From: an uncultured Gammaproteobacteria bacterium
GTDB lineage: Bacteria > Patescibacteriota > Patescibacteriia > SBBC01 > CAIJZX01
DNA length: 64,000 nucleotides
Direction of reading: 5' to 3'
Assembly: GCA_964349465.1 (NCBI GenBank)
Contig: CAYGGC010000002.1
Span: forward strand, 28,841-92,840
A program made the position numbers and the translations under genes. Positions 24,931-35,658 of the stretch are shown here, piece after piece (the stretch's first letter is position 1; each line of letters starts with the position of its first letter). A model generated the notes under the pieces. That model had not been told where the DNA came from, did not search any database, and saw only the letters and a program-made list of their open reading frames with translations.

Positions 24931-25356
24931 TTACTCCGAAAACGTGCTTTGATGTAAGACCTCTTCAACCTGCTGCTGCAAGTCGTGTGGGTCGAGGTTT
25001 GACTTCACCAAATACCGATCGGCCCCGAGTTTTTTCGCGGTCCGAACATGCTCATCCGAATCAAGGTTAGAAAGAATAATGACTCGCGTCATTGATAACG
25101 ACGGCGTATTTTTTACCAGCCGAAGAATCTCAAAACCCGTGGGCTCGTGATAATTCTCGCCATGGGTGTCACCCTTCGGATGCTTTGGGATCAGGAGGTC
25201 CAAGAGGACCACGTGCGGGCGGTTAACAATGATTTGCTCCTCCCCTGTTTGCGCATCAAGCGCGGCGTTCACTTCGTAACCTGACTTTGTTAACATCAGG
25301 GTATAGAGCGAGGAAATAATTGGTTCGTCTTCGATCAGCAAGATGCGAGTGGCCAT
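24931..25356 (-). CDS. Single-domain response regulator (CheY-like receiver only)
   Basis: MATRILLIEDEPIIS...VLLDLLIP... with the conserved Asp pocket and a lysine (LVKSNLD). There is no output domain. The start is 13 nt after the stop of the kinase gene. Confidence 0.7.
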   Translation of the reverse strand: MATRILLIEDEPIISSLYTLMLTKSGYEVNAALDAQTGEEQIIVNRPHVVLLDLLIPKHPKGDTHGENYHEPTGFEILRLVKNTPSLSMTRVIILSNLDSDEHVRTAKKLGADRYLVKSNLDPHDLQQQVEEVLHQSTFSE

Positions 25357-25369
25357 AGACGTAGGGTAA

Positions 25370-28192
25370 TTATGAACGAGGGCTAACCACGTGCGCAGCC
25401 GCTTGATGCGGATGTGCCTCGGGCGCGTCAGCATGCGGGACCAAGGGTAGAATAAATTGGAAGGTACTCCCCTTTCCTTCACCATCCGACTCGGCCCAAA
25501 TCCGCCCGCCGTGGGCGTCGATAATGGATTTCGCAATAAATAAACCAAGTCCCGATCCATCAGGATGGATTTGGGCGATCCCGCTCCCGCGCACAAACTT
25601 GTTAAACAACTCCGTCGCGTCCTGCGGCTTAATACCAATACCGGTGTCTTTCGCGCGGAAATGAATACGCTCGTCTTCCAGTTCGGCCGTGAGGGTGATT
25701 GAACCTTTATCGGTATATTTGATGGCGTTATCGATCAAATTAAGAATGACATCTTGAATTTTATCGGCGTCAACCATAACTTTCGGCAAGGGTGTTTTTG
25801 GAAGCTTATTGAGAATTTTCAAACCCTTATCGTTCGCCGCTTTCGTTACTTCCTTAATTTCACGCACCACTAAATCTTCAAACTGGACTGGCACTTTTGT
25901 ATATGTGAACTTGCCCGCCTCGATTTTTGAGACGTTTAAGAACTGGTTAATTAAGCGAATCATCCGCTGTGATTCAGCTAATAAATCGGTCAGAATTTTC
26001 AGGTGATCGGGTTTCATCTTCCCGAAATCTCCCTGGGTCATCATCGACAGATAGCCCATAATCCCGGTCATTGGCGTTCGGAGTTGATGGGACGCGATCG
26101 ACACAAATTCTGACTTCGCACGGTCGAGTTCTTGAAGATGCTTGTTCGCAACTTCGAGCTGTCCGTTCGTTTCCTTCAATTGCGAGAAAAGCGTTAAGTT
26201 CCGCGACACAATCCCGAGTTCGTCGGCCATCGATTGCATCGTCGCGATTTCTTGTGGGGTGATGTCGTGGATAGATTTTTGCAAACCGATCTCAATCACC
26301 CCGATGGTCCTTGATTCCGAAATGATCGGTACTAAAACCATCGATTTCAGGCCCATCAGTTTTTGGATACTCGCACATATAATTTTCGGCAGCGGCGGCG
26401 AGAGAACGTCGCTCATCGAGTCCGTGATTTTTATTTCTCCAGTGCGAATAACCTGATGCCCTAAAGAGTTAGAGGCCGGATCCATGATATCGCTGTGGTA
26501 CGTATCAAACCGCAACGGCAATAATCGCATCGCCTTCTTAGTCAGCGGTGTTTCGGTAATTGCGCGCGCCCGAACCGTCCGACCATCTTGGTCGAGGAAG
26601 ACTAGAATCGCGCCCAGATAGCCAAGCTCAGTTGCGACGCTATTGGCGATATTTTGGACGGCTTGGGAGAAATCGAGTGTTCGCGTGACTTCTTTGGTAA
26701 TATTTTGCAGGGTTTGCAACGAGACATTCCGATCTTCGAGCTTCTCGGTCGCTTCCTTTACTTTCACTTTCAAATTTTCACCAAACTCCCGAACTTCTTC
26801 GAAGAGGTTCGCCTTTTGAATCGCTGATCCAATTTGTGGCGACAGCACTTCAATCAAGTTCACGTCATCGTTGGAGAACGTATCCCCAGAGAGTTTAGAC
26901 CCGAGGACAAGTACGGCAATCAAGTGATCTTGCGCGTAGACCGGCGCAATTAAGGCCGCTCCAAGCTTTTCAAATTCTTCTTTCGACGCAAGCAACGGTC
27001 CGCGTAGCTCTTCTTTCGTATCGTCAATTTTCCGCTCAAGCGATTCATAAATGGCCGGATGACGGTGCTCGCGGAGATAATGCACGAGCTGACTCTCGTT
27101 TTGGAGCACCATGTTTGGGTATTTGCCCAAAAGTTCCGGCAAGGCCTCAAACCGATCCGTGCCGCCATGCGAAGTTCGGCGCAGGAGCGTCGCCGCAAAC
27201 TTGATTTTGAGCTCTTGGGTTAGGGTCGTCCGCAGATCGGTAATCAGTTTTGTCTGATCAAGTTCGAAACTGAGGGTTTCGGAAAGTTTGCGGAGAATCG
27301 CTTGATAATCAATCTTTGCCTTGAAAAAGACTTTGTCGGTTGCTCGTGAAAGAAGCCGCTTGAGTGGATCAAGGCCGAAGACGATGAGAGCGGCGACGAG
27401 GAAGGCTATTGAATTTTGACTAACTTGGCTCTTTTCAAAGAAACGCGCGGAGGTAAACGTAATAAAAACGAAAGAGAGTGTGACGAGGGTCAACAGCAAA
27501 CCATAGATTAATGAACGTGTGGCGACTAGACGGATATCTAGTAGCCTATGCCTTACAATTGCGTAACTAACTAATACAACGAGAAAAAGTGTGCCGAGCG
27601 GTCCAAGGGCAACCAGACTACCGATCCCGATTACCGGCAGTAAAATATTAGTAATAATGCCAAAAAGAGCGGTAATTGCGACTCCAGCAAAAACGTACCT
27701 TATCTGTTGCTTAACTAACCCCGAGGAGCTTAAATATTTTCTAATAAAACTGTAAATCGAAAAAATTATTCCTCCAAAGAAATATAGTAAGAAAAAATAG
27801 TACCCTGGCGCATAAGTTAACTTTGCAGGAAAGATTGTGTTATCTACAGATTCAACAAGGTATCCAAAAAAAATAGTTGGCAACAAAACAATAAATCCCA
27901 CTAAAAAAAATACCAATACTGGTTTTCTTGGGTTAACACCAAACGGGAAGAGATAGCTAAAAAAAAGTATAGATGGAATCATTAGTACCGGTCCAAGAAA
28001 AGTCATTTTTGCCCAAAAAAGCGACCTATTCGGATCAAAGTCAACCAAATAGTTAGCAATTGCCCAAATTGCCAAGGATATCGCGAGGGAGAAAAAAGAA
28101 ATATTTATTTTGGATTTGTGATTTCTGTTTAGAATTAAGAATCCTAAAAAAATAATTGAAGCCGAGACAAAAAGAACTGACAATAGGTACAT
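25370..28192 (-). CDS. Sensor histidine kinase with 7TM, GAF, GAF, HisKA and HATPase domains
   Basis: About 220 aa of multi-pass membrane domain, then two GAF-like regions, an H-box (FVSIASHQLRTPMTGIMGY), an N-box (LNLIDNAIKYT) and G-boxes (DTGIGI, GSGLGL). 940 aa. The 5' roughly 500 nt are strongly AT-rich. Confidence 0.8.
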   Translation of the reverse strand: MYLLSVLFVSASIIFLGFLILNRNHKSKINISFFSLAISLAIWAIANYLVDFDPNRSLFWAKMTFLGPVLMIPSILFFSYLFPFGVNPRKPVLVFFLVGFIVLLPTIFFGYLVESVDNTIFPAKLTYAPGYYFFLLYFFGGIIFSIYSFIRKYLSSSGLVKQQIRYVFAGVAITALFGIITNILLPVIGIGSLVALGPLGTLFLVVLVSYAIVRHRLLDIRLVATRSLIYGLLLTLVTLSFVFITFTSARFFEKSQVSQNSIAFLVAALIVFGLDPLKRLLSRATDKVFFKAKIDYQAILRKLSETLSFELDQTKLITDLRTTLTQELKIKFAATLLRRTSHGGTDRFEALPELLGKYPNMVLQNESQLVHYLREHRHPAIYESLERKIDDTKEELRGPLLASKEEFEKLGAALIAPVYAQDHLIAVLVLGSKLSGDTFSNDDVNLIEVLSPQIGSAIQKANLFEEVREFGENLKVKVKEATEKLEDRNVSLQTLQNITKEVTRTLDFSQAVQNIANSVATELGYLGAILVFLDQDGRTVRARAITETPLTKKAMRLLPLRFDTYHSDIMDPASNSLGHQVIRTGEIKITDSMSDVLSPPLPKIICASIQKLMGLKSMVLVPIISESRTIGVIEIGLQKSIHDITPQEIATMQSMADELGIVSRNLTLFSQLKETNGQLEVANKHLQELDRAKSEFVSIASHQLRTPMTGIMGYLSMMTQGDFGKMKPDHLKILTDLLAESQRMIRLINQFLNVSKIEAGKFTYTKVPVQFEDLVVREIKEVTKAANDKGLKILNKLPKTPLPKVMVDADKIQDVILNLIDNAIKYTDKGSITLTAELEDERIHFRAKDTGIGIKPQDATELFNKFVRGSGIAQIHPDGSGLGLFIAKSIIDAHGGRIWAESDGEGKGSTFQFILPLVPHADAPEAHPHQAAAHVVSPRS

Positions 28193-28197
28193 GTAAA

Positions 28198-28503
28198 TTA
28201 TAGTCTGTTAAAAATACGAAAGATGCCAATTATAACGAGTACCAAAAAAATTAAATATACATATGACGGCAGTTTTTTTGCAAAAAAGAAAACATAGATA
28301 TACGGCACTAGGAATACTATGAGAGTTAATCCAGCTCGTACAATAATCTCAAAAGTCGAGACCTTCAGTGCTACCCCCACAACTAGCCAAGCCATTAGAG
28401 CATAGAAAACGGGCCAGGTTCCAAAGTATAGAATTCCAAAAATTCTGCCATCTAGACCATATTTATTGATTTGCTGATTTTTTTTTCGCAAAAAGTCTAA
28501 CAT
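28198..28503 (-). CDS. Small membrane protein, 101 aa, 3 TM helices
   Basis: Hydrophobic ORF lying 2 nt downstream of the acyltransferase stop and 6 nt upstream of the kinase start. About 33% GC. Confidence 0.5.
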   Translation of the reverse strand: MLDFLRKKNQQINKYGLDGRIFGILYFGTWPVFYALMAWLVVGVALKVSTFEIIVRAGLTLIVFLVPYIYVFFFAKKLPSYVYLIFLVLVIIGIFRIFNRL

Positions 28504-28505
28504 GA

Positions 28506-29213
28506 TTAATGCAAAGAATACCTATAATCTTTCCCATGAGGAGAAAGGGAGCCATTAGATAAAAATTTTAATAGTGATCTATTTTTTTCGTACATCTTTT
28601 CTTCAAACTCATTAACATGGATTACATAAGGAGCTGTAATGCCTTGAAATATTTTGGATTTCCCAATGCGTGTAATTGGGATATTAAACTCTTCGAGGTT
28701 CGGTGTTAGCTTATCATCTAAGACGCAGAAAATATTGTTTAAGTGTCTTTCTTTTACCAGCAAATAAATGCCCTTAATTAATACTAGAAGTAGGTGTTTT
28801 CTTCGATAATTTCTTGCGACTATTAATCTAGAAATTTCTGCGACCTGATTTACATCAACTGGTTGAAGACGATAATCAATTTCGAAATTTCTGAGTATGG
28901 GCAATCCATCATCTGAACCGAGAATAAGCCTAGCTGTTGCAGCGAGATCTCCTGAATTATGTCTTACTACAAGATGAATGGAGTGACGATCAAAAATATC
29001 TTGTTCTCTTTTATTTGGGTAATCTCTGTAGTCTAAGTATCTATATTCTTCACAGTAAACTTTGTAACGAATTCTATAAATTTCTTCTAACTCGTCATGC
29101 TCTGAAGTTGTGTAGAAAGTAAAATTTTTATAGACACTTCTTTCTGCTAATCTTAAATTTATCCCCCCAAAGAAAGGACTCTTTACCAATGCTTTCAAAA
29201 AAATGGAGGGCAT
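28506..29213 (-). CDS. GNAT-fold N-acyltransferase of the autoinducer-synthase/N-acyl-amino-acid-synthase/OlsB superfamily
   Basis: RIRYKVYCEEYRYLDYRDYPNKREQDIFDRHSIHLVV matches the LuxI/FeeM block R..VF..E..W.....E.D.FD..S.HLVV. ATARLILGSDDGLPI...AEISRLIV matches the E.SRL.V block. The start at 29213 overlaps the upstream stop as TAATG. Confidence 0.6.
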   Translation of the reverse strand: MPSIFLKALVKSPFFGGINLRLAERSVYKNFTFYTTSEHDELEEIYRIRYKVYCEEYRYLDYRDYPNKREQDIFDRHSIHLVVRHNSGDLAATARLILGSDDGLPILRNFEIDYRLQPVDVNQVAEISRLIVARNYRRKHLLLVLIKGIYLLVKERHLNNIFCVLDDKLTPNLEEFNIPITRIGKSKIFQGITAPYVIHVNEFEEKMYEKNRSLLKFLSNGSLSPHGKDYRYSLH

Positions 29214-29890
29214 TATTTTTTCAAAACAATATAAGTTGTAGTGGCAAACCAAATCACTGAACTAAGAACGCCATAAAGGAAATTTGGAACAAAGTCGGGG
29301 GAAAAAATAGGCCAAATCAGATCGATAAATACCGCGGGCAATCCACCGATGATCACAGACAAAAGGACTAAAAAAACATTTTTGCCGTTTAACCCATCGT
29401 TTCTTTTTGATTGCTTGAATAGCAGTCCTACTGCTAATAAGTAGAGAGAGAGTAAAAGCACATTGTAAAAAGGGAGTAGAGGTCCTGCGACTACCCTCCC
29501 TACGTTTGTTGTAGAGGCAACATAATCCAACTCTATAGTTCGTGTTGTAAGAGCGATTATTGAAAATAGTGCTGCGGGCAAATACATCAATGTTCTATGA
29601 AGTCTATCCAAATGAACTAGCGGAAGTGGAAATACAATGGCCAAATGGACTAGTGACGTAAGTAAAAAAATTCCAAAAACATACACAAAGGAATTGATTA
29701 TGAGAGATGCTTCTAGGCTGTAGGCCAACAAGCCGCTGAAAATCACCCACAACCCCGTACTCAAAGCCAACAACGCCATCACCTTCCGAATTTCACTCTT
29801 CGAGTGCGTCACCCAAAAGAAAATTGCGAGGATTAACTCCCCAATCCCAACAAGGTAGGTGGCTGTAAGTAAAAAGGTTTTCATTTCCAT
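29213..29890 (-). CDS. Stand-alone 7TM membrane protein, paralogue P1 of the kinase sensor domain
   Basis: 225 aa with seven predicted TM helices. It shares MK...ATYLxGxGE..L..FFW.T, FPLP, GGLP and a terminal YIVLKK with P2 and P3. Confidence 0.6.
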   Translation of the reverse strand: MEMKTFLLTATYLVGIGELILAIFFWVTHSKSEIRKVMALLALSTGLWVIFSGLLAYSLEASLIINSFVYVFGIFLLTSLVHLAIVFPLPLVHLDRLHRTLMYLPAALFSIIALTTRTIELDYVASTTNVGRVVAGPLLPFYNVLLLSLYLLAVGLLFKQSKRNDGLNGKNVFLVLLSVIIGGLPAVFIDLIWPIFSPDFVPNFLYGVLSSVIWFATTTYIVLKK

Positions 29891-29891
29891 A

Positions 29892-30566
29892 TTATTTCTT
29901 CAACACAATATAGGAAGTTACGCCAAGCCATACAAGTGTCGCTGAGGTGCCGTACAGAGGATCTTTAGCATACCCCGTAAACAAAGGAATGATCAGGTCA
30001 TTAATGACTCCCGGAAGACCCCCTAGGACAAAGGACAAAGCCACTGGCAGAAGGGTGTGACGATATGTGACATCAGCTTTTCTCAATCGGTATAACAATA
30101 TTCCAATAGCCAGTGTATACAGTGCGATAAGGTATATATTGTAATACTGGAAGAGCGGACCGCCGTGCCAGGCGCCCTGAAATGTTGAGGAGGAAACGTA
30201 ATAATTGAGGACAGTATTCGTTCCAAAAATCTCGAAAGAAAAAATAATGGCCGGGATAAAGAGCAGAAAAATATGAAAGCGATCTATACGAATTATTGGT
30301 AATGGAAAAAGGAGAGAAAAAAGCAAAACGGCGGTTACCATGAAAACTCCAAAGGCGTATGTCAGTCGAGGTAATAGGTTTTGCGCCGTAGCATTTTCAG
30401 TATACGCAGCGCCAACGGTTGAGAGTACCCATGCGCCTGTTACGATCGCAAGGAAACCAAGTATCTTTCGAATAATTTGGTTTCCATTCGTTTTCCAAAA
30501 AAACAATCCGAGGAGAACTTCTCCTAGTCCAATCAGATACGTTGCAATGATTGCGAGTTCTTTCAT
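29892..30566 (-). CDS. Stand-alone 7TM membrane protein, paralogue P2
   Basis: Start MKELAIIATYLIGLGE. It ends SYIVLKK. Its ATG overlaps the P3 stop as ATGA. Confidence 0.6.
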   Translation of the reverse strand: MKELAIIATYLIGLGEVLLGLFFWKTNGNQIIRKILGFLAIVTGAWVLSTVGAAYTENATAQNLLPRLTYAFGVFMVTAVLLFSLLFPLPIIRIDRFHIFLLFIPAIIFSFEIFGTNTVLNYYVSSSTFQGAWHGGPLFQYYNIYLIALYTLAIGILLYRLRKADVTYRHTLLPVALSFVLGGLPGVINDLIIPLFTGYAKDPLYGTSATLVWLGVTSYIVLKK

Positions 30567-31222
30567 TTCTTCACCAAAATATATCCGGTCAAGCACAGCC
30601 AAACCGAGGTAAACAACGATCCAATAAAACCGTATTTCGTGGCCGCATTCAACGGCAAGGCGATATCAAACACCGCCGAAACCACAAGCGAGACCACGAT
30701 ACCGATCGTCACCAGCTGGGTATTTCGACGATGCAACCCGTCGGCCCGCCGCCAGGCGCGCACCAAGTTCACCAACGACCACAGCCAATACAGCCCGAAA
30801 ACGACGATCAGGAGCCAGAACAACTCGCCGGTTGCTGTCGCGTACCCAGGGCCGAAGGCAACAATACTTGAACGAGCGACAAAAATATCGGTCAGCAGGA
30901 GCCCTGGAATGAAGATCGCCGCTGGCCACAGTACCCAGGGAACGAGCTCATGATTTCCCCTCGTCGGTAGAGGGAAGGAAAAGCTAAAGGGTAAGAACAG
31001 CACCGCAGTCATCAATCCCCCGGTCCAAGCCAAGTGCTCGGCGGTGTCGCCACTGATCCACTGTCCAAGATACCCAAGCCCGTTCGCCCCCACATATAGG
31101 GCAACCGCGAAGCAAAACAAGCCATACCACATGGTCGCCTGGTTTTTCTGGTATTTCGTTAGGAACCAAAAGCCCAGCCAAACTTCAGCCAGGGCGATCA
31201 CGATTAACAGCCAGCCAATCAT
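30563..31222 (-). CDS. Stand-alone 7TM membrane protein, paralogue P3 (GC-normal copy)
   Basis: 219 aa. Contains FSFPLP and ends GYILVKK. Its GC is about 55%, unlike P1, P2 and the acyltransferase. Confidence 0.6.
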   Translation of the reverse strand: MIGWLLIVIALAEVWLGFWFLTKYQKNQATMWYGLFCFAVALYVGANGLGYLGQWISGDTAEHLAWTGGLMTAVLFLPFSFSFPLPTRGNHELVPWVLWPAAIFIPGLLLTDIFVARSSIVAFGPGYATATGELFWLLIVVFGLYWLWSLVNLVRAWRRADGLHRRNTQLVTIGIVVSLVVSAVFDIALPLNAATKYGFIGSLFTSVWLCLTGYILVKK

Positions 31223-31422: not shown

Positions 31423-32085
31423 CTACTGAGAAAAGCTAGTGAGGGCTTTCTGCATGTCCGCATCAGAAATATCGGCGGATCCGAAGGAAATGAGATATTT
31501 CGGGGTAATAAAGAGATAGTAATAGCCATACGGCCAAGCATCTGTGTCTCGTTGTACGGTACGAAAAACCTGTTGACCGTTCAGTGTCAGTACATCAGAC
31601 GTGAGCACTCCCCGATCCCACATATACTGATCGAGAATTGTTGCCTGAGATTGGCTATCAAGATTCGTGAGGTTATTATTGTTTGGGTATACCTCAAGTA
31701 CAATTTCATCACTTGGGTTAGGATTAAATCCTACCAATGTATCTCGATTGCGTTCAATCCCCGTATTCAAATTCTGCCGACTAAATCTAGCCGCATACGC
31801 AGCCTTTTCTCCGCCGGGAAAATGCGTCATCGAAAAACTCTTATCAAGTTCCAACGAAAAACCATATTTCTCGCTAACATATTTTGTATACCCCGGTAAA
31901 CTTTCAACTGTTGACGTTTTAAGATCTTTTTCGGAACCCCATACTTTTTGTGTAGTCGTATTACTCGTAGTGTTACTATGTAACGATTTGTCTGTGGTTT
32001 TTGCCGTTTGCCGCGTAAACACAAAAACGAACAGAGCAATACAAAGAGTAGCTCCAATGGTTGCAAGGTAAATTATTTTTTTCAT
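31423..32085 (-). CDS. Membrane-anchored secreted protein, Ser/Thr/Asn-rich linker
   Basis: N-terminal TM/signal anchor (IIYLATIGATLCIALFVFVF). No recognised domain. Translationally coupled to the gene upstream. Confidence 0.5.
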   Translation of the reverse strand: MKKIIYLATIGATLCIALFVFVFTRQTAKTTDKSLHSNTTSNTTTQKVWGSEKDLKTSTVESLPGYTKYVSEKYGFSLELDKSFSMTHFPGGEKAAYAARFSRQNLNTGIERNRDTLVGFNPNPSDEIVLEVYPNNNNLTNLDSQSQATILDQYMWDRGVLTSDVLTLNGQQVFRTVQRDTDAWPYGYYYLFITPKYLISFGSADISDADMQKALTSFSQ

Positions 32086-32777
32086 TGTCCGTCCCCCATC
32101 ATTAATCGAACGATCGCGTCGAATGTATTTCTGTACATTGAAACCCGTAGCTCAACACCATCGGACTGATTATACCAGCTCCCAAGTAAAGAATATGCCG
32201 ACCCGTCAGATAGAGTTACCTTACAGACTCGGTCGAATTTAGTGTTAAAGCAGCTAATCGTTCGATTATTCTTGCTACCATAGATTTCGTCAGAAGTCAC
32301 TTGATCTTGTATAAAGGACAGGGGTAAAAAAATTGTAGTGTATGCAGGTGGTGTAGGCACAGTCTCGCCATCTGCTGGTATCTTTTGAACTACAAACACT
32401 GGCGCGTCATTGAGGCCTTCGCATTGCGTAACGCCTTCCATAAGGTAGACAGTGTCCTCATCCAGAGACGAGGGGCAGGCAAAGAAGGAGGTCGAGTATT
32501 TAAAACAAATTGAATCATTCACGCAGTATTTCCGGAAGCCTTTTGTGTCAGGAGTGGAAAAAGAGTTTTCATAAGGGATTTGCTTACCCGACGCTATGAC
32601 GGCTGGACCACGTTCGCGCTGATCAGTTGTGTTGATATTATTGAACGACTCGACATTTTTGTCAGACGATACATTATTAGTTAAATGTGTCTCTTCTTTT
32701 TGGGATAACAAAATTCCACCGGTGATGGTTATCAATAATAGAAGTAATCCGATAGGGATATAAGTGTTTGCTTTCAT
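32082..32777 (-). CDS. Membrane-anchored, Cys-rich secreted protein
   Basis: N-terminal anchor (IPIGLLLLLITITGGILL). Ten Cys in the extracytoplasmic part. No recognised domain. Confidence 0.5.
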   Translation of the reverse strand: MKANTYIPIGLLLLLITITGGILLSQKEETHLTNNVSSDKNVESFNNINTTDQRERGPAVIASGKQIPYENSFSTPDTKGFRKYCVNDSICFKYSTSFFACPSSLDEDTVYLMEGVTQCEGLNDAPVFVVQKIPADGETVPTPPAYTTIFLPLSFIQDQVTSDEIYGSKNNRTISCFNTKFDRVCKVTLSDGSAYSLLGSWYNQSDGVELRVSMYRNTFDAIVRLMMGDGQ

Positions 32778-32802
32778 ACCGAATGAATGAGAATAGAGTT
32801 GT

Positions 32803-32849
32803 TATTGAAAAAATTACCGGGTACAAGAGTATAGTACCCTTGTACCCGG
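32803..32849 (-). terminator. Intrinsic terminator 3' of the CHAP lipoprotein gene
   Basis: On the minus strand, CCGGGTACAAG-ggtactatact-CTTGTACCCGG is an 11-bp stem followed by TAATTTTTTC. Confidence 0.55.
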
Positions 32850-32863
32850 CGACTGTGAAGGCG

Positions 32864-33649
32864 TCAGTATCCGAGGTTCAAAGCCCTGTAATTCGCCAGG
32901 TTGCCCACTCCGGACCCGGACGTCACGGCGATGACATGCATCCCGATTTCCTCGTCGCCGATGAAGTTCGAGTCGACGACAACCACCTTCCGAACCGAGG
33001 ACCCGGCGGCACCTTCCACGATACCGACTACGATGGCCGTGTGGCCGTTGACCGTATTCGTTTCGATGACGTCACCGACACGAATCTGGTAGTACGGTCT
33101 GGCCGAGCCGCCGTAGGCCGGAAGCTTACTATTCCGAACACCCGCGCGGTACAGGATCAGTGCCGCAAAACTCCGGCACTGCCCGCCGTGGGAACGAACC
33201 GTGCCGGTGTTCTGTCCGGAGCGATTCAAGCTCGTCCATGAGTAGACGTCCATGTTCGAGTAATAGCTCGGCCACCCGGTCCAGAGGGAAGCGTTAACCC
33301 CGTACCAGTCATTGCCCTTGATGACATTGTGAGCATTCGGGTCGCTCAGTAGATACGCCCAGTTACTGCGCTGGACCGTTCCATCCGCCGACAACTGCCA
33401 GTACATATAGCCCCAGTTCTGACGGAGCGCGTAGTAGCACTCGTACTGAATGGCGATACGGTTGTCGGGATGCAGTCGACTCGGCTCCACGCCCGGCTTC
33501 CCGATCCGGCCCGACATCGTGTCGGCCGGCGAAATGGTCTGCTCAGTCGTGATCGACGGCTGCACGGGGTTATCCTTCCCGCAGCTCGTCAGCGTCATCG
33601 GCACCAGTGCCAGCGCAAGCGCCAGCCCCACCACCAGAAACTTCTTCAT
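32864..33649 (-). CDS. Lipoprotein with a C-terminal CHAP-like (Cys/His amidase/peptidase) domain, CHAP-1
   Basis: The start at 33649 (MKKFLVVGLALALALVPMTLTSC, lipobox LTSC) has AGGAAG 8 nt upstream. The catalytic-looking region is GGQCRSFAALILYRAG...GDVIE...GHTAIVVG. Confidence 0.6.
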   Translation of the reverse strand: MKKFLVVGLALALALVPMTLTSCGKDNPVQPSITTEQTISPADTMSGRIGKPGVEPSRLHPDNRIAIQYECYYALRQNWGYMYWQLSADGTVQRSNWAYLLSDPNAHNVIKGNDWYGVNASLWTGWPSYYSNMDVYSWTSLNRSGQNTGTVRSHGGQCRSFAALILYRAGVRNSKLPAYGGSARPYYQIRVGDVIETNTVNGHTAIVVGIVEGAAGSSVRKVVVVDSNFIGDEEIGMHVIAVTSGSGVGNLANYRALNLGY

Positions 33650-34068
33650 TGCACACTTCCTGTTCTGCTCCATGACGGAGCTAGAGGGTTTGGTCGCTGA
33701 GGATCACCTCCTCAGGTGTTCTTGATGAGCTACCGTGAAACGGGCGACGAACTGCCGTTCTGGATCACCTCCCTTCCCTCGCACCAGTTGTTGAATTTGA
33801 GTGCTGAGGTTTTTGAATTGTAATGTGCGTCACGAACCATGATGGTCTTTTTTTGGCGTACACAAAGCACGACTATCAACGCCCACTTTCTGCGTTGAGC
33901 CGTCAGTCCTCACCAAGCATGGTGATATGCCACAGCACCAACTACTCACGAGTGGTGCTGGGCAAGCAAAAACCAGCGGCCCAACTCTCGACACTTTGTC
34001 AGGTTAACAACGTATGAACGTTGTCAGCCCGAGCGAAGTCGAGGGCCAAGCCACTGGTTCGTATGTTC

Positions 34069-34096
34069 ATTGTACTTGACGGAATAGCTGCGTCAA
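34069..34096 (-). promoter_or_regulatory. Promoter plus conserved leader, copy A (drives the long 5'UTR of CHAP-1)
   Basis: On the minus strand, TTGACG, a 16-nt spacer, then TACAAT. The transcript begins with GAACATACGAACCAGTGGCTTGG, which is conserved with copies B and C. Confidence 0.5.
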
Positions 34097-34109
34097 GTGG
34101 AAAACTTGT

Positions 34110-34730
34110 TTATTGTACTACTGCTGATTTGACCACCTTATCTAAAATAGCCATCACATCGCCTCTTCCCTGATTGTATTCAATTTCTACCGTTGGGCGA
34201 TGATCAGAATACCAATAGGTCATCGAGTAACCCACATTGGTCGTCACTTCGATATAGCGCCACTGCTGTTCATGGATTTGCTCGCTACCTTCACGAACAA
34301 TACGTTGACCTGCGGGAAGAGTGGCTTTTATCGACTGAACGAGTTCGACCGCTGAATCAAATTCGTGCTGCATGAACAGTAAACTCGGACTGTCTGGGTA
34401 GCTCACCGGAAATGACCAAGACACCGCGCCTGCCCCTTCGGACTTCGTCATATTTTTTGGGATGGCAAAAGTAAATCCACTATACGGGAAATCTTGCGTG
34501 TCGACCGCCTGAGCAACGACTGTATCCCACGCTCGACTTACATCTGTAGATACATTACCGTTTGCATTGCTGTTTTTTTGTTTCGTGTTCGTCACTGGAG
34601 TATAAAAATTTTTCAATCCAAACCAAACGCCACCTCCGATGACAATAAGCGCGACGATGACCATGAAATTTTTCATACGTAATTGACCAATGATACAAAT
34701 AAAAAAGAAAATAGGGAACAGAGAAATCAT
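34110..34730 (-). CDS. Membrane-anchored secreted protein
   Basis: The start at 34730 has GAGGGGAG 7 nt upstream. An internal MKNFMVIVALIVIGGG start is also possible. No recognised domain. Confidence 0.5.
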   Translation of the reverse strand: MISLFPIFFFICIIGQLRMKNFMVIVALIVIGGGVWFGLKNFYTPVTNTKQKNSNANGNVSTDVSRAWDTVVAQAVDTQDFPYSGFTFAIPKNMTKSEGAGAVSWSFPVSYPDSPSLLFMQHEFDSAVELVQSIKATLPAGQRIVREGSEQIHEQQWRYIEVTTNVGYSMTYWYSDHRPTVEIEYNQGRGDVMAILDKVVKSAVVQ

Positions 34731-34761
34731 ACTCTGCTCCCCTCTTTATGAGAAGGCGCCA

Positions 34762-35658
34762 TCAGTACCAGATACCCGCGCCAGAGACACAACGCCACTT
34801 CGTACCGTTGATCTGGGCGTTGGTCACATAGTGCCGGCCGATCGTCTCATACGCCAGGTAATTGGAATCGCCCACTGTCATCCCGCCACTATCCTTCGTG
34901 ACGCAGACACCAATATGCTGATTCCCGGTCCCGTTGTTGTAGTAGACTATGTCACCTACCTGAGCGCTCAGGGCTGACTGATCGCTGGTAGACGTGTGAG
35001 CCGCCCAGCTCCAGTTTAGTTTGTAACTGCCCCCGGTCGCTCGGTAGAGCAACATAGCCACAAACGCGACGCACTGCGTCCCGCGACCATAACCACCTCT
35101 CATCGCGTAACTATCGGCACTGAGATAGTTAACCCAGTACTCGACCGTGTTCTGCGGCGATGCCATCAGCCCCGGCTTGTCGATACGGCAACAGTTGCAG
35201 ACCGGCGGAATGTCATCCGAGACGCAGGTCTGGAAGGTGTTGAGCGCATAGCGGAGGCCGTTTGCATTCGCATCCGCCGCCGTCGACAACCAGTTCCAGT
35301 TCGACTTCGGACCTGAAGGGCCGACGGTATCGTCCGGCTTAGTCAACCAGGAACGGTTCAGCGAGTACCAGAACTCGTTCCGCACAAAGTACCGTCTCGA
35401 GCCGATCGAGTACGGCTGCATCGACGACTTCCGCAGGGCAGCTGCGGTCGACTCCGCACGAGTGGTGGTGTACGTCAGCGGCGTGAGACCCCGGTAGATC
35501 GACTTGACCGCACCCCAGCTCGTCCGGAGAACTTCATGCTGCAGCGTGGCATTGGCAGCGTAGTCTGGAGTCTGGTCAGTTCCAGCAACGGCTGGTTTCA
35601 CCCACACTGACATAGTTGCCAGCACGATGAGCGACAGGACCATCATCAGCTTTTTCAT
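34762..35658 (-). CDS. Secreted CHAP-like domain protein, CHAP-2 (paralogue of CHAP-1)
   Basis: Signal peptide MKKLMMVLSLIVLATMSVWVKPAVAG. The Cys/His region is GTQCVAFVAMLLYRATG...GDIVYY...QHIGVCV. Confidence 0.6.
   Translation of the reverse strand: MKKLMMVLSLIVLATMSVWVKPAVAGTDQTPDYAANATLQHEVLRTSWGAVKSIYRGLTPLTYTTTRAESTAAALRKSSMQPYSIGSRRYFVRNEFWYSLNRSWLTKPDDTVGPSGPKSNWNWLSTAADANANGLRYALNTFQTCVSDDIPPVCNCCRIDKPGLMASPQNTVEYWVNYLSADSYAMRGGYGRGTQCVAFVAMLLYRATGGSYKLNWSWAAHTSTSDQSALSAQVGDIVYYNNGTGNQHIGVCVTKDSGGMTVGDSNYLAYETIGRHYVTNAQINGTKWRCVSGAGIWY

Follow-up and report, generated by a model that had tools for sequence, protein, structure and literature searches.

In the agr groups of Staphylococcus and the blp and com loci of Streptococcus, a hypervariable centre takes in the genes for signal processing together with the kinase's sensor half. 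The receptor varies in step with the signal in these loci, and conserved flanks permit allelic replacement. They have peptide signals, HPK10-type kinases, and LytTR regulators, and free paralogs of the sensor are absent. The comQXPA system of Bacillus subtilis comprises a signal-making enzyme, a membrane histidine kinase, and a response regulator encoded in a single operon. Variability there extends over the signal genes and the kinase's multi-helix N-terminal sensor, and the cytoplasmic part of the kinase is conserved, as is the regulator (PMC4008528); in particular, ComP's N-terminal domain varies far more than the cytoplasmic part does (PMC4008528). HisKA_7TM has already been described as a sensor domain of histidine kinases (PMC5847659). 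We found no description in the literature of tandem free HisKA_7TM copies beside a kinase with the same domain and bordering a variable module, and no account of the present locus in the literature on HisKA_7TM, Kerfeldbacteria, or Patescibacteria quorum sensing.

The window analyzed here (the whole DNA stretch of 64,000 nucleotides) contains seven genes in the order P3, P2, P1, FeeM-type acyltransferase, small membrane protein, 7TM-GAF histidine kinase, and single-domain receiver (Table 1). The genes are tightly packed, with overlaps of 4 nt (as called between the P2 start and the P3 stop, although the mechanical ORF of P2 reaches to 30602) and gaps of 1-5 nt, and the same packing was found in the identical contigs L001 and L002. 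Scans for promoters and terminators gave counts not above those in shuffled sequence. The architecture is kept in L003-L017, L076-L081, and other loci of Candidatus Kerfeldbacteria; on the basis of this comparison, the three free-standing 7TM genes are part of a predicted operon conserved across Candidatus Kerfeldbacteria (Patescibacteria/CPR).

Table 1. Features of the 7TM-kinase locus, with positions in the window.
Feature	Coordinates	Strand	Basis
P3, free-standing 7TM protein, 219 aa	30563..31222	(-)	Pfam HisKA_7TM, 33.8 bits
P2, free-standing 7TM protein, 224 aa counted from ATG	29892..30566	(-)	HisKA_7TM, 30.4 bits
P1, free-standing 7TM protein, 225 aa	29213..29890	(-)	HisKA_7TM, 35.4 bits
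FeeM-type GNAT, 235 aa, predicted N-acyl amino acid synthase	28506..29213	(-)	Pfam FeeM, Acetyltransf_5; NCBIfam TIGR03694
Orphan membrane protein, 101 aa, 3-4 hydrophobic segments	28198..28503	(-)	Hydropathy, phmmer
Histidine kinase, sensor (7TM) part, aa 1-240	27473..28192	(-)	HisKA_7TM, 49.7 bits
Histidine kinase, cytoplasmic body (two GAF, HisKA, HATPase_c)	25370..27472	(-)	Pfam
Single-domain response regulator, 141-aa receiver without output domain	24931..25356	(-)	Pfam Response_reg

P1, P2, P3, and the N-terminus of the 940-aa kinase all scored above the Pfam gathering score of HisKA_7TM (PF16927, 28.6 bits); with the first 220 aa of the kinase as query, which gave the score in Table 1, the match spans aa 7-220. 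A preliminary description of this DNA had proposed a tandem triplet of stand-alone kinase-sensor-domain genes and a fourth 7TM copy in the kinase, and both were borne out. Its placement of the triplet directly 5' of the kinase was incorrect, since the GNAT gene and the gene for the 101-aa membrane protein intervene. The kinase and the neighbouring receiver carry the domains of a two-component system (HisKA, 61.8 bits; HATPase_c, 89.7 bits; Response_reg, 52.4 bits), and a receiver gene is also found downstream of the kinase in relatives, with 58-82% identity. The kinase sensor additionally matched the N-terminal 210 positions of the model for the LIC10906 family of stand-alone membrane proteins, below its cutoff. 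The AF2 model of P3 has seven helices (pLDDT 92.8). A Foldseek search of the PDB with this model retrieved generic GPCR-like 7TM bundles only (E ~1e-3, TM 0.5-0.66, rmsd 6-7 A), and the PDB contained no sequence relative.

The 235-aa GNAT exceeded the cutoffs of both TIGR03694 (PEP-CTERM/exosortase-associated acyltransferase; 126.8 bits, curated cutoff 111.95) and Pfam FeeM (41.3 bits, threshold 27). The FeeM fold family is akin to LuxI-type autoinducer synthases, and a weak Autoind_synth match was found in relatives. No exosortase gene was present among those called in the compared loci. Identity of the kinase as a PrsK/PEP-CTERM kinase was considered and rejected, as no PrsK model occurred among the best 25 of 82 NCBIfam matches to the full kinase or among all 5 NCBIfam matches to its aa 1-680. 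The 101-aa protein had no Pfam or NCBIfam match and no homolog in any related locus; in a phmmer comparison, it was unrelated to the membrane proteins of 150-160 aa that occupy the same slot elsewhere. Those of L004 and L009 are related to each other.

The GC contents of P3, P2, and P1 were 0.544, 0.426, and 0.401, matching the gradient of about 55, 42, and 40% given previously. The difference persisted at third codon positions (GC3 0.68, 0.41, and 0.42; chi-square p = 1e-9). An effect of amino-acid composition or of membrane proteins was therefore ruled out as its source, since GC3 differs as well and P3, itself a 7TM protein, has a high GC3. Downstream of P1, GC3 was 0.27 in the GNAT gene (the minimum of the window), 0.32 in the 101-aa gene, and 0.34 in kinase aa 1-240, confirming that everything from P2 and P1 down to the kinase N-terminus is AT-rich, and about 0.55 in the rest of the kinase. 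The maximum-likelihood change point of GC3 lies at kinase codon 231 (window ~27499). P3, on the other hand, is not merely genome-like as had been stated, because its GC3 exceeds the 90th percentile of the 42 long ORFs in the window (median 0.54, 10-90% range 0.43-0.67).

The same profile was found in relatives. In all 19 loci examined, GC3 declines along P3, P1/P2, and the enzymes as far as the kinase sensor and then rises abruptly, with a mean body-minus-sensor difference of 0.30 (range 0.12-0.51); sensor and body GC3 were weakly correlated (r = 0.44, p = 0.06). Within the kinase gene, the step runs from 0.32 to 0.56 in the window and, at its largest, from 0.31 to 0.81 in a relative, making it a clean natural case for the coupling of recombination, divergence, and base composition. 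The AT-rich stretch, which begins at P2/P1 and reaches kinase codon ~231-266, is hypervariable in 19 of 19 loci. Its right edge is the end of the seventh helix of the kinase and its left edge lies behind P3. The GC gradient is thus the signature of a hypervariable AT-rich module.

The kinase body of the window is 62-95% identical to its orthologs, while the sensor (aa 1-200) is just 17-32% identical to that of every ortholog, including P0042 with a body identity of 95%. No relative of this sensor allele exceeded ~39% identity, and the sensor alone as query retrieved one weak match and missed its own parent protein. Among 46 full-length orthologs, similar bodies carry dissimilar sensors (body/sensor identities of 95/27, 94/27, 92/29, and 90/34%), and similar sensors occur on more distant bodies (62/65, 60/60, and 56/57%). 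This comparison shows that, at the level of sequence, the sensor is decoupled from the body in both directions. Nucleotide similarity to L075 and L003 begins at kinase codon ~266 (window ~27397) and that between L076 and L077 at codon ~223; the latter two loci have non-homologous enzyme genes between flanks that are 80-85% identical.

The genes of the module are diverse, and the enzymes are all of amino-acid or small-molecule chemistry. Across relatives, they encode FeeM-type GNAT, ThiF, SAM methyltransferase, pyruvoyl decarboxylase-like protein, aminotransferases, amino-acid dehydrogenase, glycosyltransferase, and small membrane proteins. All of the seven pairs with the highest sensor identity have a homologous gene directly upstream, at similar identity (64/60, 56/60, 45/39, 44/40, 43/41, 37/43, and 37/43%). 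The FeeM gene is phylogenetically incongruent, being absent from L003, 38% identical in L004, and 64-70% identical in the more distant L006, L009, and L011. In these last three loci, the sensors are only 24-28% identical to that of the window; synthase and sensor are therefore not strictly linked, and the module is itself a mosaic.

These patterns could arise with no exchange at all, if the sensor, the nearby free copies, and the enzymes evolved in place under weak or diversifying selection. Very divergent DNA stops recombining and would therefore lack GC-biased gene conversion, so that it would drift toward AT while the conserved flanks stay GC-rich. The closest available pairs, which allow comparisons between lineages only, have a dS of 0.9-1.6 (1.6, with a dN of 0.026, for the kinase body against L075); because of this age, relaxed constraint on a weakly constrained domain could lower sensor identity to about 30%, including the ~27% observed, without replacement, and these pairs are too old for divergence alone to prove replacement. 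Among the compared loci, none formed a pair from one species with nearly identical flanks. Evolution in place would also agree with the shared ranking of rate and AT content (kinase sensor, then P1/P2, then P3) and with the gradual, not stepwise, climb of the identity profile over aa 160-280. Nevertheless, point substitution cannot put non-homologous enzyme genes into the same slot between conserved flanks, sensor identity does not follow body identity monotonically (57-65% at bodies of 56-62%, and 27% at a body of 95%), and the sensor type appears to co-vary with the adjacent gene. In addition, the estimated dS of the sensor is higher than that of the body of the same gene, an estimate that is weak because it depends on an alignment at 30% identity. 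We therefore consider evolution in place rather unlikely and prefer replacement of the module.

The free 7TM copies help to define what may be exchanged. P1 and P2 are 39-40% identical, and the identity of P3 to P1, P2, and the kinase sensor is no more than about 20-24%, so that the earlier term "clearly paralogous" suits the first two and not P3. P3 has 40 stand-alone homologs of about 220 aa (45-97% identity), and its orthologs hold the same operon position in L003, L004, L006, and others; by this comparison, P3 is the conserved left anchor of the locus. P1 orthologs in relatives are 46-65% identical, and among 1.84 billion representatives the P1 family accounts for no more than 81 clusters, almost all of about 220 aa. 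P2 does not occur in L082, L003, and L004, the closest relatives, P3 being followed directly by a P1 ortholog in L082, where P3 is 83% identical; the best P2 homolog, with 44% identity, comes from L012, a distant locus. P2 therefore has the appearance of a lineage-specific gain, barring independent losses in several relatives. Loci differ in how many free 7TM genes they have, from 1 to 4. The tree built from 44 copies places the kinase-fused sensors in a clade of their own, apart from the P3-type and P1/P2-type clades, and none of 53 kinase sensors was nearer to a free copy than to another kinase sensor. The tree and the orthologs in other genomes show that P3, the P1/P2 type, and the kinase sensor are three ancient paralog lineages.

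The preliminary description had read the free genes as serially acquired sensor cassettes available for exchange onto the GAF-kinase body, P3 possibly being the displaced original sensor. The sharp GC3 differences among the free copies, the lineage specificity of P2, and the exchanged or very divergent kinase sensors of close relatives would all be expected from such swapping. It is contradicted by the conservation of P3 as a free gene of ~219 aa across the clade, at a fixed operon position, and by the separate clade of kinase sensors. Moreover, the free copies are complete ORFs with 19-24% identity to the kinase sensor of the window, and no shared DNA blocks or cassette-type repeats were found between the free genes and the kinase; the sole repeat, 40 nt long and with ~70% similarity, lies at the 3' ends of the free 7TM genes themselves. 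A transfer from free genes to the kinase is thus extremely improbable. Serial acquisition or duplication holds insofar as the copies do not descend from one old event with a uniform history, and fails insofar as all four are ancient paralogs with orthologs. Likewise, alternative sensor-kinase junctions do exist (bodies 90-95%, sensors 27-34%). Because of the tree, the absence of any kinase sensor nearest to a free copy, and the lack of shared DNA, exchange would take place between alleles of the kinase sensor and the adjacent enzymes.

Two further explanations concern the function of the module. FeeM-family enzymes were originally discovered through their production of long-chain N-acyl amino acid antibiotics, and the module might be a variable cluster for an antagonistic compound (e.g., an N-acyl amino acid antibiotic), with the free 7TM proteins for immunity or export and a kinase regulating production as in blp and similar bacteriocin loci. 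The variable gene content, small membrane proteins among it, and the changing number of free 7TM genes are in line with this proposal. We regard it as improbable, as the free 7TM genes have their homology with a kinase sensor domain rather than with any known family of immunity or export proteins, and the conservation of P3 while the enzymes change is a poor match to compound-specific immunity. Patescibacteria live attached to hosts, and variation of the cell surface driven by phages or by an episymbiont's host cell, with exposed 7TM loops as the targets and the enzymes as bystanders, could also be proposed; lineage-specific secreted proteins of mosaic composition upstream of P3 would fit it. 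Since cytoplasmic enzymes belong to the variable block and appear to co-vary with the sensor, and P3 is exposed at the surface to the same degree and is yet conserved, this possibility seems highly improbable.

The explanation that we favour, with modest confidence, is that the conserved operon holds a strain-specific cassette for signal synthesis and sensing, akin to comQXP and agr pherotype loci. The module would be replaced as a block by recombination, with one crossover at the junction of the sensor and cytoplasmic parts of the kinase and the other inside or behind the free 7TM genes, at a position that varies. Its enzymes may make an amino-acid-derived, probably lipidic signal, which in the window would be an N-acyl amino acid. 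Detection would be the task of the cognate 7TM sensor; lineages would therefore use different pairs of signal and receptor, as in comQXP, agr, and blp. The weakest point of this model concerns the free 7TM proteins, which would most likely be accessory, receptor-like membrane partners of the kinase. More tentatively, and as a possibility that we would not expect to hold in full, Kerfeldbacteria might communicate chemically in lineage-specific dialects, with a swappable cassette of small-molecule enzymes and matching 7TM sensor whose diversity is upheld by balancing selection and whose spread between lineages is due to recombination, and with free P3-type and P1/P2-type proteins as co-receptors or modulators of the same kinase.

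Genomes of CPR/Patescibacteria are tiny and encode few regulators, and little is understood of how these bacteria interact with other cells and with hosts. If the favoured explanation is true, the locus is a concrete and testable candidate for strain-specific chemical signalling in these bacteria, and N-acyl amino acids and other amino-acid derivatives become a candidate ligand class for the uncharacterised HisKA_7TM domain.

The locus has the layout of a pherotype locus, in which signal-synthesis genes and the sensor are variable and the catalytic part of the kinase and the regulator are conserved. It shares with comQXPA the single operon with signal-making enzyme (here a predicted one), membrane histidine kinase, and response regulator, a variable stretch over the signal genes and the multi-helix N-terminal sensor, and the conserved cytoplasmic part and regulator; with agr and blp/com, it shares the hypervariable central segment over signal genes and the sensor half of the kinase, and conserved flanks at which alleles could be replaced. 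Silent-cassette gene conversion, as in pilS/pilE and vls, was rejected as a model, because the free copies have full ORFs and conserved orthologs, and no repeat links them to the kinase. The differences from comQXPA are substantial. The window locus has neither a peptide pheromone gene nor an isoprenyl transferase, and carries small-molecule and amino-acid enzymes of changing type; its kinase has a HisKA_7TM sensor and two GAF domains; its regulator lacks a DNA-binding domain; and one to four extra free sensor paralogs are present in these loci. Furthermore, the present comparison documents variation among lineages (dS about 1), as opposed to variation within a species. The family features of agr and blp/com (peptide signals, HPK10, and LytTR) are also absent. 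The encoded enzymes (GNAT, ThiF, methyltransferase, decarboxylase, and aminotransferases) are not those of a ribosomal peptide pheromone with its modifying or processing enzyme. The locus would thus resemble the pherotype family in its working, and it is not a member of it, because it has no genes for a peptide pheromone or its processing. If the more tentative reading of lineage-specific dialects is correct, it would be a non-peptide counterpart of the Gram-positive pherotype systems, and the first described in CPR bacteria.

The genes from P3 to the receiver on the minus strand of the window (see table) form one operon, since they are separated by gaps of 1-5 nt or overlap by 4 nt. Independent gene calling on a pair of identical metagenome contigs gave the same genes. 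The three tandem sensor-domain genes of the preliminary description are real: P3, P2, and P1 were found as open reading frames, and all three, as well as residues 1-220 of the kinase, exceeded the gathering score of the Pfam HisKA_7TM model. They do not adjoin the kinase as first described, since the GNAT gene and a gene for a small membrane protein intervene. The receiver is a bare domain without a DNA-binding or enzymatic output domain, and its orthologs are 58-82% identical across the clade; the output of the pathway must therefore use protein-protein contacts or a phosphorelay.

Features of the operon, its upstream region, and related loci (coordinates are window positions unless a related locus, L-number, is named; GC3, third-position GC)
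Feature	Coordinates	Strand	Length	GC3
P3	30563-31222	minus	219 aa	0.68
P2	29892-30566	minus	224 aa (from its ATG)	0.41
P1	29213-29890	minus	225 aa	0.42
GNAT	28506-29213	minus	235 aa	0.27
Membrane protein	28198-28503	minus	101 aa	0.32
Histidine kinase	25370-28192	minus	940 aa	0.34 (aa 1-240); about 0.55 (rest)
Receiver (response regulator)	24931-25356	minus	141 aa	
Five predicted secreted or membrane-anchored proteins	31423-35658	minus		0.38, 0.43, 0.78, 0.44, 0.73
GC3-rich protein	32864-33673	minus	269 aa	
GC3-rich protein	34762-35658	minus	298 aa	
HisKA_7TM protein, L015	5718-7067		449 aa	
YcaO/nitroreductase fusion, L080	3349-5601		750 aa	
Radical SAM protein, L003	15980-17374			

By comparing the contigs of P3 homologs and the loci fetched with the kinase body (the conserved cytoplasmic part), we found the same operon in many genomes titled Candidatus Kerfeldbacteria or Patescibacteria. 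In these relatives, one to four free 7TM genes are followed first by enzyme or small membrane genes, again one to four in number, and then by the 7TM-GAF kinase; in most loci the receiver is the next gene after the kinase, and in L003, L004, and L081 it lies a few genes farther downstream. No description of this operon was found in the literature on HisKA_7TM, Kerfeldbacteria, or Patescibacteria and quorum sensing. Directly downstream of the kinase, L080 carries a YcaO/nitroreductase fusion and L003 a radical SAM gene, both typical of peptide natural-product maturation, which hints at modified peptides in some versions of the locus.

The kinase sensor (its N-terminal 7TM part) varies independently of the body. 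Compared with the window, the cytoplasmic part was 62-87% identical in the fetched loci, while residues 1-240 were 30-42% identical in all of them. Among 46 full-length orthologs (four-digit P-numbers, distinct from the genes P1-P3), the identities of body (aa 261-920) and sensor (aa 1-200) were decoupled in both directions. Similar bodies carried dissimilar sensors in the pairs window/P0042 (body 95%, sensor 27%), P0059/P0062 (94%, 27%), P0079/P0081 (92%, 29%), and P0050/P0056 (90%, 34%), and, conversely, far more similar sensors sat on more divergent bodies in P0056/P0074 (62%, 65%), P0061/P0071 (60%, 60%), and P0052/P0080 (56%, 57%). For the window, DNA similarity to L003 and to L075 (the locus encoding P0042) began at the same point, about kinase codon 266 (window position about 27397); for L076 and L077 it began at about codon 223. 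The identity profile climbs gradually across residues 160-280, a pattern that crossovers at varying sites near the end of helix 7 could produce. A word-indexed search with the 240-aa sensor returned one weak match and missed the parent protein, and its negatives are untrustworthy for such helix-rich, low-complexity queries.

The hypervariable module also takes in genes upstream of the sensor. L076 and L077 carry blocks that cannot be aligned, flanked by free 7TM genes of about 80% identity and kinase bodies of 84.5% identity: in L076 a methyltransferase, a FeeM-type GNAT, and the sensor, and in L077 a protein of 150 aa, a distinct GNAT, and another sensor. Across loci, the same slot holds FeeM-type GNATs, ThiF-like enzymes, SAM methyltransferases, a pyruvoyl (HDC-like) decarboxylase, class I/II and class IV aminotransferases, Glu/Leu/Phe/Val dehydrogenase, a nitroreductase-like protein, a glycosyltransferase, and small multi-helix proteins. 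In each of the seven locus pairs with the highest sensor similarity (7/7), the genes directly upstream of the kinase are homologous and of matching identity, suggesting that sensor and adjacent gene travel together. The module of the window is itself a mosaic. The FeeM gene shows 64-70% identity to its counterparts in L006, L009, and L011 and 38% to the one in L004, and has no counterpart in the closest relative, L003; the sensor of the window matches that of none of them.

The closest available pairs are not recent, with a dS of the kinase body of 1.6 (window and L075) and 0.89 (L076 and L077), so that a weakly constrained domain could have reached about 30% identity by divergence in place; dN in these pairs was 0.026-0.039 for the body versus 0.77-0.79 for the sensor. 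Replacement of the module as a block is favoured because one slot holds genes that are not homologous, sensor identity does not change monotonically with body identity, and sensor type co-varies with the adjacent gene. A higher estimated dS for the sensor than for the body points the same way, but weakly, as sequences at 30% identity align poorly.

Sensor exchange, proposed in the preliminary description, is borne out in another form, and the mechanism first suggested is mostly refuted. In that mechanism, the free 7TM genes would be cassettes exchanged with the kinase, and P3 could be its displaced original sensor. Both ideas are ruled out, since none of 53 kinase sensors had a free copy as best match and no DNA blocks common to the free genes and the kinase were found; the sole repeat comprised the 40-nt 3' ends of the three free genes (about 70% similar). 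None of 40 P3 homologs (45-97% identical; 217-229 aa, save one 189-aa call) was fused to a kinase. Neighbour-joining placed 44 copies from 14 loci in three deep groups: every kinase-fused sensor; P3-type proteins with a sister type in L009, L011, and L014; and P1/P2-type proteins with P2-like and P1-like subgroups. Orthologs of every window copy exist in other loci, which makes the paralogy ancient. P1 and P2 are 39-40% identical, and P3 is about 20-24% identical to both and to the kinase sensor. The P1-type family is small, with 81 clusters out of 1.84 billion representatives and a length of about 220 aa in nearly all of them. In L082, the closest relative with data (P3 83% identical), P3 is followed directly by a P1 ortholog whose available 59 aa are about 88% identical. 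P2 is missing there and in L003 and L004, and its best homolog, in the distant locus L012, is 44% identical, indicating a lineage-specific gain or repeated loss. A third architecture for the HisKA_7TM domain occurs in the distant relative L015, where a protein with this domain at its N-terminus and a C-terminal half of unknown nature, without kinase domains, is encoded just upstream of a glycosyltransferase and the kinase.

The reported GC gradient of the triplet was reproduced (0.544, 0.426, and 0.401 for P3, P2, and P1) and persists in GC3 (p = 1e-9); the contrast is therefore not an amino-acid effect. More than just genome-like, P3 has a GC3 above that of 90% of the long ORFs of the window (median 0.54). 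Downstream of P1, GC3 drops further, to 0.27-0.34 in the GNAT gene, the membrane protein gene, and kinase residues 1-240, and it is about 0.55 in the remaining kinase; the maximum-likelihood change point is at codon 231 (window position about 27499). In 19/19 loci, GC3 declines along the operon (P3 ortholog, other free copies, enzymes, sensor) and then jumps upward within the kinase by a mean of 0.30 (range 0.12-0.51). Sensor GC3 is 0.17-0.50 irrespective of body GC3 (0.30-0.81; r = 0.44, p = 0.06). The gradient is a property of the hypervariable module, and evolutionary rate and AT content follow the same ranking, with the sensor first, P1/P2 next, and P3 last. A common AT-rich allele pool may explain the low GC, as may the loss of GC-biased gene conversion from DNA that has diverged too far for recombination. 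In L003, L078, L079, and L081, the conserved genes flanking the module often exceed their neighbours in GC3 by a wide margin (P3 orthologs 0.65-0.70, kinase bodies up to 0.81); speculatively, this would fit GC-biased gene conversion at recombination anchors beside a hypervariable island.

Upstream of P3 lie genes for five lineage-specific predicted secreted or membrane-anchored proteins, whose GC3 alternates. The AT-rich orf220 and orf231, which adjoin P3, have no counterpart in related loci, where an unknown protein of 380-420 aa is found instead. P3 is thus a conserved GC3-rich island between two variable stretches. The two GC3-rich proteins have in common a C-terminal region of about 90 aa (30% identity, E 2e-8), in which a conserved G-x-QC motif is reminiscent of the catalytic Cys region in hydrolases of the NlpC/P60 or CHAP type. 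No Pfam match was obtained for the 269-aa protein.

P3 was modelled confidently with seven helices and has many invariant Trp, Gly, Pro, Asn, and Asp residues; a fold search returned only generic GPCR-like bundles, and there is no solved relative. Our preferred guess is that the free 7TM proteins are accessory or co-receptor partners of the kinase, the main alternative being immunity or export proteins for a variable antagonistic compound.

The window GNAT scored above the curated TIGR03694 cutoff and also matched Pfam FeeM, the N-acyl amino acid synthase family, whose fold is akin to that of the LuxI-type autoinducer synthases. With its variable small-molecule enzymes, a membrane sensor that appears to co-vary with them, and a conserved kinase core and receiver, the locus matches the layout of comQXPA and other pherotype loci; the agr and blp loci are arranged similarly. 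In ComP of comQXPA, the N-terminal membrane domain is likewise far more variable than the cytoplasmic part (PMC4008528). On the basis of this layout, we propose lineage-specific signal and receptor pairs, in which the module enzymes would make a signal, in this window an N-acyl amino acid, and the cognate sensor would receive it. Unlike the pherotype families, the locus has no peptide pheromone, its sensor is from a different family, and its receiver is without an output domain; it is not a member of the comQXPA, agr, or blp families, and no PrsK model was among the 25 best-scoring of 82 NCBIfam matches of the full kinase or among the 5 matches of its residues 1-680. The locus is best filed as a polymorphic signal/receptor locus, found in a CPR lineage and distinguished by non-peptide chemistry and additional free paralogs of the sensor.
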